Source of the DNA: an uncultured virus (IMG/VR IMGVR_UViG_3300025128_000028)
Lineage: Duplodnaviria > Heunggongvirae > Uroviricota > Caudoviricetes
Reading direction: 5' to 3' (one strand)
IMG/VR virus record: IMGVR_UViG_3300025128_000028
Length of the DNA: 20,000 nucleotides
Shown one piece after another: positions 1,357 through 6,686 of this stretch. The notes beneath the pieces were generated by a model. The model ran no database searches. It was not told the origin of the DNA and saw only the letters and a program-made list of their open reading frames with translations. The position numbers and the translations under genes were made by a program. Position 1 is the stretch's first letter, and each line of letters begins with the position of its first letter.

Positions 1357-1491
1357 ATGTCGAAATCCACAGGACTGAAACAATTTGATAAAGTAATAAA
1401 ACCTGAAGATATATTGGGTTTGACAGATATACTTTGTCCTATTTCATTATGCACAGATGACAACTGTACTTGTGAAGATGAGAAAGATTAA
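1357..1491 (+). CDS. 44-aa Cys-rich microprotein (MSKSTGLK...CPISLCTDDNCTCEDEKD)
   Basis: Read manually; TTATATA box about 28 nt upstream; stop overlaps the convergent Mom-like stop (TTAA). Confidence 0.6.
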   Translation: MSKSTGLKQFDKVIKPEDILGLTDILCPISLCTDDNCTCEDEKD

Positions 1492-2294
1492 TCCATTTGT
1501 TCTAAATGAAATCTTCTTGTTAAATGGGAATCAAACGTTGGTTGATCAGGTGCAGTATATCCACATATATCGCATATAAGAGGATTATTTTCTACAGGTG
1601 GCACTTGCCTTTCAGGGTTTTGCGACCAATCATTTTCCTCTTTGTTATATTCAGGTATAAAATCAGTCTTTGGATATGGCTCTATCTTATATTTTAATTT
1701 ATTAAGTAGGTATTTTTTCTTACCCTTTGAACAGTTAAAGTAAATATATCTATGTTTTCTTGGTCTTCGTTTCATTTTTATATTATCATCGCCAAACCTT
1801 TCCTTTAATTCAGCAAAATTTTGTGTTTTACCTTGACCAAACTCAAGCCCACGATTGTGTTTATCTTCCATTCCTTTAATTTTTGGATCAGTTCTTTTCG
1901 CAGATAGTCCAATATATATAAAATTGGTGGCTTGATATACAACGCCTCTATGGTTATGTTGTGGTTCAGAATATGATATTATTATATCTTCTTTCACCTG
2001 TTTTATTGTGTTAGCAATTAAATATGATTCGGCATTTTTCAAACTGTCATCTTTTATCCATAATCTTGCAAGTTCCATAACATTATTTCTTTCTTCTTTT
2101 CCACATATACCTGCACTAACTGTTGGTGAGGCAGGTACACTATATAATATAACACCTATTAATTCGTTATTTTCAAACAAACCAAAGGAATATGAAGCTG
2201 GTCTTGCCCTATGTAAATAATGGTTTTCTAAAATTATATGAAGTCCTTCTTCATTGGTTATTTTCCTTATTTCATATTTTTCTTTTATGTTCAT
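1488..2294 (-). CDS. mom: Mom-family GNAT-fold DNA adenine modification enzyme with C-terminal C2H2 zinc finger
   Basis: Motifs ENHYLH, LIGVILY, ELARLW, NAESYLI, ISYSEPQHNHRGVVYQATNFIYIG and KHRYIYF resemble phage Mom-like proteins; tail C-x2-C-x12-H-x5-H. Confidence 0.85.
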   Translation of the reverse strand: MNIKEKYEIRKITNEEGLHIILENHYLHRARPASYSFGLFENNELIGVILYSVPASPTVSAGICGKEERNNVMELARLWIKDDSLKNAESYLIANTIKQVKEDIIISYSEPQHNHRGVVYQATNFIYIGLSAKRTDPKIKGMEDKHNRGLEFGQGKTQNFAELKERFGDDNIKMKRRPRKHRYIYFNCSKGKKKYLLNKLKYKIEPYPKTDFIPEYNKEENDWSQNPERQVPPVENNPLICDICGYTAPDQPTFDSHLTRRFHLEQMD

Positions 2295-2304
2295 TTTATA
2301 TCAA

Positions 2305-2397
2305 TGGTACGGAATACAGGTATTTCACCTATATCTTTCATGTGGAACATGAACATCATAATCACTCGATTCGAGGAAATATTTAGACCAATTCCGT
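2305..2397 (-). tRNA. trnG: Non-canonical tRNA-Gly(UCC), 93 nt, CCA encoded, enlarged D-loop
   Basis: Minus strand folds as ACGGAAT TG GTCT [AAATATTTCCTCGAATCGAGTGATTA] TGAT G TTCAT GT-TCC-AC ATGAA AGAT ATAGG TGAAATA CCTGT ATTCCGT A CCA: 7-bp acceptor, 5-bp anticodon stem, 4-nt variable loop, 5-bp T stem with 7-nt loop; anticodon at 2344-2346. Confidence 0.9.
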
Positions 2398-2418
2398 AAT
2401 TTGTATAATATGAAAACT

Positions 2419-2427
2419 AAATATAAA
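2419..2427 (-). promoter_or_regulatory. TATA box for the tRNA-Gly/mom transcript
   Basis: TTTATATTT starting 30 nt upstream of tRNA position 1; the same spacing is seen for TATA boxes ahead of 5741 and 6058. Confidence 0.65.
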
Positions 2428-6470: not shown

Positions 6471-6686
6471 TTAGATTTGACTAGAATTATATTGTCCTCG
6501 TATATATTTATTAAAATATTTTCCTTTTGATTCTGCTCTTTTAAATTCTGACCATACGTCTTTGGGAACACCTTCGCACTCATATACTTCGCTTCCTTCA
6601 CCGATATATATCACCATACGTTCAGTTTCAGTATTATATTTTGCACCACGAATCCATGACATACCTGCAAAACTATCTTCACTCAA
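6471..6686 (-). CDS. KTSC-domain protein
   Basis: SWIRGAKYN...VYECEGVP..VW.EF..AESKGKYFNKYIRGQY matches the KTSC pattern. Confidence 0.9.
   Translation of the reverse strand: MSEDSFAGMSWIRGAKYNTETERMVIYIGEGSEVYECEGVPKDVWSEFKRAESKGKYFNKYIRGQYNSSQI

Follow-up and report, generated by a model that had tools for sequence, protein, structure and literature searches.

Does a virus that carries a Mom-family DNA modification enzyme also bring its own glycyl donor for that enzyme? The question is raised by a 20,000-nucleotide (nt) stretch of DNA, hereafter the window, from the uncultured virus IMGVR_UViG_3300025128_000028 (Caudoviricetes), in which a degenerate tRNA-Gly gene lies directly upstream of a mom homolog. 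The original prediction, made from the sequence of the window, had described a TATA box, a tRNA with anticodon UCC and an encoded CCA, a gap of 10 nt and the ATG of mom, all of which could be read on the minus strand:

2427-2422, minus strand: archaeal-type TATA box TTTATA, starting 30 nt 5' of tRNA base 1
2397-2305, minus strand: degenerate tRNA-Gly gene of 93 nt, with anticodon UCC at 2346-2344, A73 at 2308 and CCA at 2307-2305
2378-2362 (approximate bounds), minus strand: enlarged D loop, about 14 nt above relatives and without G18G19
2304-2295, minus strand: spacer of 10 nt between the CCA and the mom ATG, containing an in-frame stop
2294-1488, minus strand: Mom-family GNAT enzyme of 268 amino acids (aa; Pfam PF25680, PHROG 1384, 8BV8)

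From its sequence and setting, the RNA is likely to serve Mom as a glycyl donor encoded by the virus itself and largely withdrawn from translation, and TTTATA is the probable promoter of the tRNA-mom cassette.

The element is no chance tRNA-like fold. An anticodon-blind tRNA descriptor gave a single match in the window, namely this element, with a score of 19.8 that was reached by none of 100 approximate dinucleotide shuffles of the window (best shuffle 17.0). In the acceptor stem, 2397-2391 pairs with 2315-2309 and includes A1-U72, C2-G71 and G3-C70; the anticodon arm contains G32 (2348), U33, U34-C35-C36 (2346-2344), A37 and C38 (2342), and the T stem consists of A49-U65, U50-G64, A51-U63, G52-C62 and G53-C61, with a T loop reading UGAAAUA. 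A56 in this loop is peculiar to the window copy, as the alignment has C56 in the relatives. The attributes of a tRNA cloverleaf are present (N73, CCA and covarying stems in the acceptor, anticodon and T arms), and those of a canonical tRNA are missing (G18G19, a U54-Y55-C56 loop, a standard D arm and a score with Rfam or ARAGORN). Neither ARAGORN nor Rfam, including RF00005, detected the element in the window, and relaxed ARAGORN detects its relatives, yet reads the wrong anticodon. A covariance model built exclusively from bacterial-phage and host tRNA-Gly genes (R2) matched six relatives with 37.7-40.7 bits, leaving the window copy and the copies with anticodon ACC unmatched. Every base named in the original prediction, from the missing D-loop GG and the weak T stem to G32/C38 and A1-U72, was found; what that description had passed over is a 14-nt surplus in the D region, which brings the gene to 93 nt.

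Owing to this surplus, 37 nt separate the acceptor and anticodon stems of the window element, compared to 23 in its relatives and 19 in a standard tRNA. The surplus contains a 4-bp hairpin (2375-2365) and is covered by overlapping contigs from an independent DNA run (X3), one of which varies at 2372. An archaeal D-loop intron was considered here and, judged by eye, is not supported: the central helix of a bulge-helix-bulge would pair at two of four positions and is not clean, though a relaxed form of the motif may be present. Excising 18 nt would leave the standard 19 nt, and the relatives are without the surplus. As for transcription, a 151-nt contig (2214-2364, depth 3.3) from an oligo-dT RNA library crosses the tRNA-mom junction; since it may be DNA, we do not claim expression of the locus. 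The RNA runs X19 and X20 gave contigs of read length at a depth of 2-4. A sigma-70 promoter scan, which is ill-suited to archaea, found 11 sites compared to 11.7 expected.

Both profile and fold place the open reading frame (ORF) downstream of the element in the Mom family, as had been proposed from its sequence. The ORF matches the PF25680 (Mom) profile with an E-value of 7e-45 and 153.6 bits (curated cut-off 27.1) and PHROG 1384 with 2e-53. Mu Mom (8BV8) is its sole solved-structure match by sequence (E 4.6e-13) and takes ranks 1-2 in a fold search with the predicted model (E 1.9e-13; next match 1e-5), the mean predicted local distance difference test score of this model being 82.6. When Mu residue numbers were mapped via the 8BV8 alignment, H58/Y59, R111, S124 and Y159 of Mu were found retained as H25/Y26, R77, S90 and Y120. 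Mu Mom moves glycine from Gly-tRNA-Gly onto the N6 of adenine in double-stranded DNA (dsDNA) (PMC13219725), bearing out the report mentioned in the original prediction. The C-terminus of the window enzyme carries a Cys/His motif (C241, C244, H257 and H263; window 1488-1580, minus strand) in a part of the model with low confidence; the motif occurs in the archaeal-virus Mom clade, though not in all members, and is absent from the aligned phage homologs. In five other mom loci (L144, L145, L256, L259 and L265) the Mom match extends over about 1200 nt rather than about 620, suggesting that an intron, intein or mobile gene of about 580 nt has been inserted.

If the RNA serves Mom, the two should stay together, and the original prediction had named the flanks of mom homologs as the place to look. 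The close clade comprises 11 loci with Mom at least 57% identical, two of which (L206 and L260) begin inside mom; the RNA is present in all nine close mom loci having upstream DNA (eight distinct contigs), with C35/C36 of the Gly anticodon constant, and mom loci lacking the RNA or carrying unrelated anticodons were not encountered in this clade. A reverse scan by DNA pattern returned ten loci with five true copies, two of which duplicate contigs already in the Mom-side set, and mom lies 8-10 nt past the CCA in all five. The spacer measures 10 nt in nine of 11 clade members and 8 nt in the other two. A mom coding start extended through the RNA, as in P0009 and P0010, was excluded by these spacers and by the stop in the window spacer. 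TTTATA is similarly placed in eight of ten members with upstream DNA, the window included, and a TATATA-like sequence in two of ten, against a background of 70% A+T. The genes flanking the cassette vary among the clade loci, and therefore RNA and mom move as one cassette.

The RNA itself is 86-94% identical to the window copy over aligned columns, compared to 45-60% at mom third codon positions (conserved residues). All 147 stem cells of the clade RNAs are paired, with two pairs altered on both sides, and 9 of 500 shuffles scored as high; covariation among the seven distinct sequences is thus modest. In the eight aligned copies base 34 is U or A, and no variation is seen at C35, C36, A73, the CCA or anywhere in the acceptor stem. 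Judged by this conservation, the RNA is under selection. These data also bear on whether the element is a relic, that is, a decaying tRNA gene or the remnant of an integration site hitch-hiking with mom, as its descent from a host tRNA, its variable D loop and its escape from ARAGORN and Rfam might suggest. Conservation far above that of mom third codon positions largely refutes this explanation, and compensatory stem changes and the retention of both halves and of the CCA also stand against it, as does a search of 61 host-family genomes with model R1 that gave no clear copy (one weak match, E 0.08); we regard it as scarcely credible.

As to the amino acid, the archaeal glycine identity set consists of C2-G71, G3-C70, C35 and C36 (PMC9976931), all of which the viral RNA has; A73 is present and not required. 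These elements, A73 included, had been pointed out in the original prediction and are invariant in the eight aligned copies. The G1-C72 of the Gly consensus is swapped for A1-U72, which had been listed among the signs of a non-translating RNA; since host tRNA-Gln genes also carry A1-U72 (4 of 44 host tRNAs have it, tRNA-Gln included), this pair alone is no such sign. The reference here is a single Nitrosopumilus genome (G002) with 44 tRNAs, among which tRNA-Gly(CCC) aligned best to the viral RNA, with a score of 48 compared to 32 for the runner-up. The viral RNA shares with Nitrosopumilaceae tRNA-Gly(CCC) the acceptor pairs 2-7 (identical in a second host genome, L456), A73, the 5' strand of the D stem and C35/C36. 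In contrast, the host tRNA has G1-C72, a D-loop GG, a canonical T loop and a G-C-rich T stem, and its CCA is not encoded.

The same comparison addresses translation. All 44 of the 44 host tRNAs possess a D-loop GG, Y55 and C56, and in each of them one or more of the pairs 49-65, 50-64 and 51-63 is G-C. Neither G32-C38 nor A34 occurs in any of the 38 intronless ones; a literature search on ACC anticodons gave nothing, and the rarity of A34 is a statement about this set. The viral RNAs are without the D-loop GG and carry G55; G51-C63 occurs in none of them, some members keeping one G49-C65, and in seven of seven distinct copies the anticodon loop and the T loop can each pair down to 3 nt; a 32-38 pair adjusts ribosome binding (PMC4238358). 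Five relatives (L199, L200, L201, L207 and L364) carry A49-U65/U50-A64/A51-U63, which is the weak set for elongation factor Tu (EF-Tu) of the Staphylococcus aureus non-proteinogenic tRNA-Gly (PMC7826273), a tRNA that also lacks G18G19 (PMC4574755). This confirms the parallel drawn in the original prediction, and the viral RNA shows both traits, having lost G18G19 and pairing weakly in the T stem at 49-65, 50-64 and 51-63. In staphylococci such tRNAs feed GNAT-fold Fem transferases outside translation and let them escape competition by the elongation factor (PMC7826273, PMC4574755), and the viral RNA would do likewise. Unlike the viral RNA, which is virus-encoded, descends from archaeal tRNA-Gly(CCC) and would serve DNA modification, they are chromosomal, bacterial and devoted to peptidoglycan bridges. 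The viral RNA has A73, not the bacterial U73, and its best match among the 44 host tRNAs is tRNA-Gly(CCC), which would set it apart from the staphylococcal lineage. By analogy, then, it works like the staphylococcal non-proteinogenic tRNAs and is not one of them.

A tRNA-Gly beside mom is not confined to archaeal viruses. The descriptor gave a tRNA-like match within 700 nt of mom at 28 of 192 distinct loci, and at 26 of these the match is Gly-type. After clustering of the mom loci at 85% (94 clusters), 12 Gly-type and one other tRNA were counted near mom (246 kb), compared to three and three farther away (733 kb), an enrichment with p 1.3e-5 (binomial by bases). In a quickly computed Mom tree with 125 rows, in which L164 is wrongly labelled tRNA-less and L206 has no upstream DNA, the tRNA label requires 10 changes, at least six of them forced by starred branches, and the archaeal-virus clade forms one well-supported branch amid phage sequences. 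The bacterial-phage copies have G1-C72 and mostly U73, and many are altered, with an anticodon loop of 6 nt, bases 32 and 38 paired, or a bulge in the T stem. Of 25 cultured records chosen for mom, three have tRNA-Gly at the mom end:

L372:2077-2150 (KU160656.1 46356-46426): tRNA-Gly(UCC) of Arthrobacter phage Martha, unannotated; also in L462, L463 and L464
L513:1773-1847, opposite strand to mom: annotated tRNA-Gly of Microbacterium phage Bush, 33 nt past mom and near canonical
L516:1716-1791: annotated tRNA-Gly of Salinibacter phage B2_17, 33 nt past mom, with G33, C32-G38 and a bulged T stem

In these three phages and in Sicarius2, tRNA-Gly is the sole tRNA found and lies at most 35 nt from the mom end. 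The Martha gene overlaps the final 21 nt of mom including its stop, lacks the D-loop GG and has a Watson-Crick 32-38 pair; its region is common to 22 Arthrobacter phage records, and the tRNA covaries (84 of 84 stem cells paired in four aligned copies). A further group of nine loci (L147, L148, L149, L150, L163, L164, L191, L236 and L274) has a phage tRNA-Gly-like gene immediately adjoining mom on one side or the other. Its anticodon loop measures 6 nt, G50 and A64 are mismatched, and an additional base follows the T stem; ARAGORN labels most of these copies tRNA-???, and the L148-type tRNA had no match among annotated phages.

These arrangements matter for the idea that the element is a cis-acting, tRNA-like leader, which would act as a processing or regulatory signal of the mom mRNA (cleavage by RNase P or Z, or sensing by glycyl-tRNA synthetase, GlyRS) and donate nothing. 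The constant 8-10 nt before the start codon and the TATA box throughout the clade would suit such a leader, as would the L147-type phage copies that likewise end just before mom. In other lineages, however, the tRNA is found after mom, overlapping the end of the gene or on the opposite strand, and a processing signal would need neither the invariant C35/C36 nor an encoded CCA. We hold a leader without donor function to be quite improbable, and a leader function is compatible with a donor role. Returning to the dedicated donor, we lean slightly towards a wider version of it, in which Mom prefers a virus-encoded donor and tRNA-Gly has been taken repeatedly in both prokaryotic domains, each time from the domain of the host (A73 in archaeal, mostly U73 in bacterial copies), fixed beside mom with its GlyRS identity bases kept, and removed from translation by differing routes, these being loss of the elbow, closure of the anticodon loop or its reduction to 6 nt, or a bulge in the T stem.

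A number of observations weigh against a dedicated donor. Within the enzyme, Mu D149 is replaced by E110 and Mu R151, which is essential in Mu Mom (PMC13219725), by Q112; R151 is also missing in the other ten non-Mu-like homologs aligned and hence may be Mu-specific. Adjacent tRNA-Gly is absent from 82 of 94 mom clusters and from 22 of 25 cultured mom records, phage S-SSM7 has four non-Gly tRNAs directly upstream of mom, and the near-versus-far composition of tRNAs reached p 0.07. The EF-Tu pair rules are bacterial and the virus is archaeal, the weak T-stem pairs could partly be drift since the genome has 29.5% G+C, and in silico the isolated RNAs fold with the D arm open or rearranged. Moreover, Mu Mom takes all three Escherichia coli tRNA-Gly isoacceptors (PMC13219725), so that a private tRNA is not demanded by the chemistry of Mom. 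This last point also fits a different role, in which a still-translating tRNA-Gly would refill the pool drained by Mom or read Gly codons ending in A or T, being linked to Mom and not private. The two Gly codons that the virus uses most, GGT (74) and GGA (56), make up 130 of 163 in 13 window ORFs and are those matched by anticodons ACC and UCC, and canonical-looking mom-linked copies exist (L125 type, L252 and Bush), for whose lineages the explanation may be right. For the archaeal-virus RNA we consider it unlikely: this RNA is without the D-loop GG and Y55 present in every host tRNA, its T and anticodon loops are pairable to 3 nt, its A34 has no counterpart among the intronless host tRNAs, and the window copy tolerates 14 additional nt in the D loop.

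As a control gene we used MT-A70, another modification gene, at 60 loci (39 clusters), none of which had a near Gly-identity tRNA (0/39, p 0.018); counting one long-armed ACC tRNA gives 1/39 and p 0.11, which is not decisive and belongs with the points just listed. The tRNA in question, found in L574 (4081-4164, minus strand) and L575 (4050-4133, minus strand), is a phage tRNA with a long variable arm, a leucine-like body and anticodon ACC, and lies near an MT-A70 gene in a locus without mom. The control touches on a role in counter-defense, namely that of a nuclease-resistant or decoy tRNA-Gly within a counter-defense island, directed against host cleavage or acetylation of Gly-tRNA. TacT-type toxins do target Gly-tRNA-Gly (PMC9976931), and altered anticodon arms recur, most non-canonical copies having Watson-Crick 32-38 pairs or 6-nt loops. 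But tRNA-Gly tracks mom and not MT-A70, and resistance to tRNases would equally protect the donor of Mom, leaving this role highly improbable.

With the dedicated donor as the preferred explanation, the locus may be viewed as a cassette of two parts for DNA hypermodification, carried by a virus that probably infects Nitrosopumilaceae. A single TATA promoter would drive the tRNA-Gly-derived RNA and then mom, and host tRNA processing would release the RNA with its encoded CCA end. The dimeric GlyRS of the host would charge it via the identity bases observed at C2-G71, G3-C70 and C35/C36. The elbow and loop features used by elongation factor 1alpha (EF-1alpha) and the ribosome are lost from the sequence, by which the RNA would be excluded from translation, and because of this loss the charged RNA would remain available to Mom. 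Mom would then transfer the glycyl group to the N6 of adenine in viral dsDNA, rearranging to N6-carbamoylmethyladenine and blocking host nucleases; transfer, rearrangement and nuclease block have been shown for Mu Mom (PMC13219725). The RNA would originate from a host tRNA-Gly(CCC) gene, with the window mom grouping with bacterial-type phage mom genes, and other phage lineages would have paired mom with bacterial tRNA-Gly separately.

The surroundings of the cassette point to the source. Upstream of it lie two genes:

5112-2794, minus strand: family B DNA polymerase, PolB1 type (best solved match 1s5j, E 6.8e-141)
2768-2433, minus strand: Cys-rich ORF of 111 aa between polB and the cassette, with weak HNH-family matches only

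The structure 1s5j is that of Sulfolobus PolB1. The window polymerase is 45-47% identical to Nitrosopumilaceae polymerases, a scan that names this family without ranking it against other archaea because it was seeded with these relatives. Besides this polymerase, Pfam profiles identify MCM, vWA and AAA proteins and a methyltransferase of the MT-A70 family in the window, and the MCM matches archaeal viruses only among annotated phages. The source is probably a virus of marine Nitrosopumilaceae. The Cys-rich ORF is optional and outside the tRNA-mom system, a contig of run X3 connecting 2404 to 2781 and omitting it (strain variant). The MT-A70 family gene (5741-5196, minus strand) adjoins polB, recurs in L119, where a copy with 82% identity lies 1.1 kb from the cassette, and is a probable second DNA-modification gene of the window. 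Side by side at 19253-16647 (minus strand) are the vWA-domain and AAA ATPase genes, presumably a MoxR-like pair; a KTSC-domain gene lies at 6471-6686, and a short ORF of about 43 codons (by eye; 1357-1488, plus strand) is convergent with mom, both stops coinciding. The Mom profile had no matches in 401 host-class genomes, a result that is uninformative as there was no positive control, and a search with the host-tRNA pattern likewise gave no matches, as did scans with single proteins. The 68-kb contig C3 of host genome G002, perhaps a mobile element, carries two additional divergent tRNA genes, for Asn and His (L478 and L486).

Phage tRNAs generally supply codons or replace cleaved host tRNAs, and are translating and often clustered; compared to these, the viral RNA is solitary, bound to one enzyme and structurally degenerate. 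The window enzyme shares family, fold and most active-site residues with Mu Mom (PF25680, 8BV8; PMC13219725; bioRxiv 10.1101/2023.03.24.534169) and presumably also draws on Gly-tRNA-Gly when modifying the N6 of adenine in dsDNA. In contrast to Mu Mom, which was shown to work with host tRNA-Gly, it belongs to an archaeal virus, is preceded by its own tRNA, has Q at the R151 position and carries the C-terminal Cys/His motif; the mom region of the Mu-like phage D108 has no adjacent tRNA. In the main text and two supplements of PMC13219725, archaea and virus-encoded tRNA are unmentioned, and term searches of PMC13219725, the 2023 preprint, PMC7824862 and PMC8651126 returned no mom-tied viral tRNA-Gly. 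In a literature in which subscription papers were mostly outside reach, we found neither a viral tRNA-Gly linked to mom nor an archaeal-virus Mom described. Both halves, Mom using Gly-tRNA and a non-proteinogenic tRNA-Gly, have precedents.

The use of Gly-tRNA by Mom has only recently been established and was interpreted as scavenging of host tRNA. If our reading is true, it shows how viruses dodge elongation-factor competition for the donor, and it would account for solitary, odd phage tRNA-Gly genes overlooked by annotation tools. The natural donor variants map the tRNA requirements of Mom and GlyRS, and the mom and tRNA-Gly pair is present in cultured Arthrobacter, Microbacterium and Salinibacter phages, an in vitro Mom assay having been published. 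The host group consists of marine ammonia oxidizers, whose conflicts with viruses are poorly known; here, the cassette would mean that Mom hypermodifies adenine in an archaeal virus, and would extend non-proteinogenic tRNAs from the bacterial cell wall to DNA modification and to archaeal viruses.

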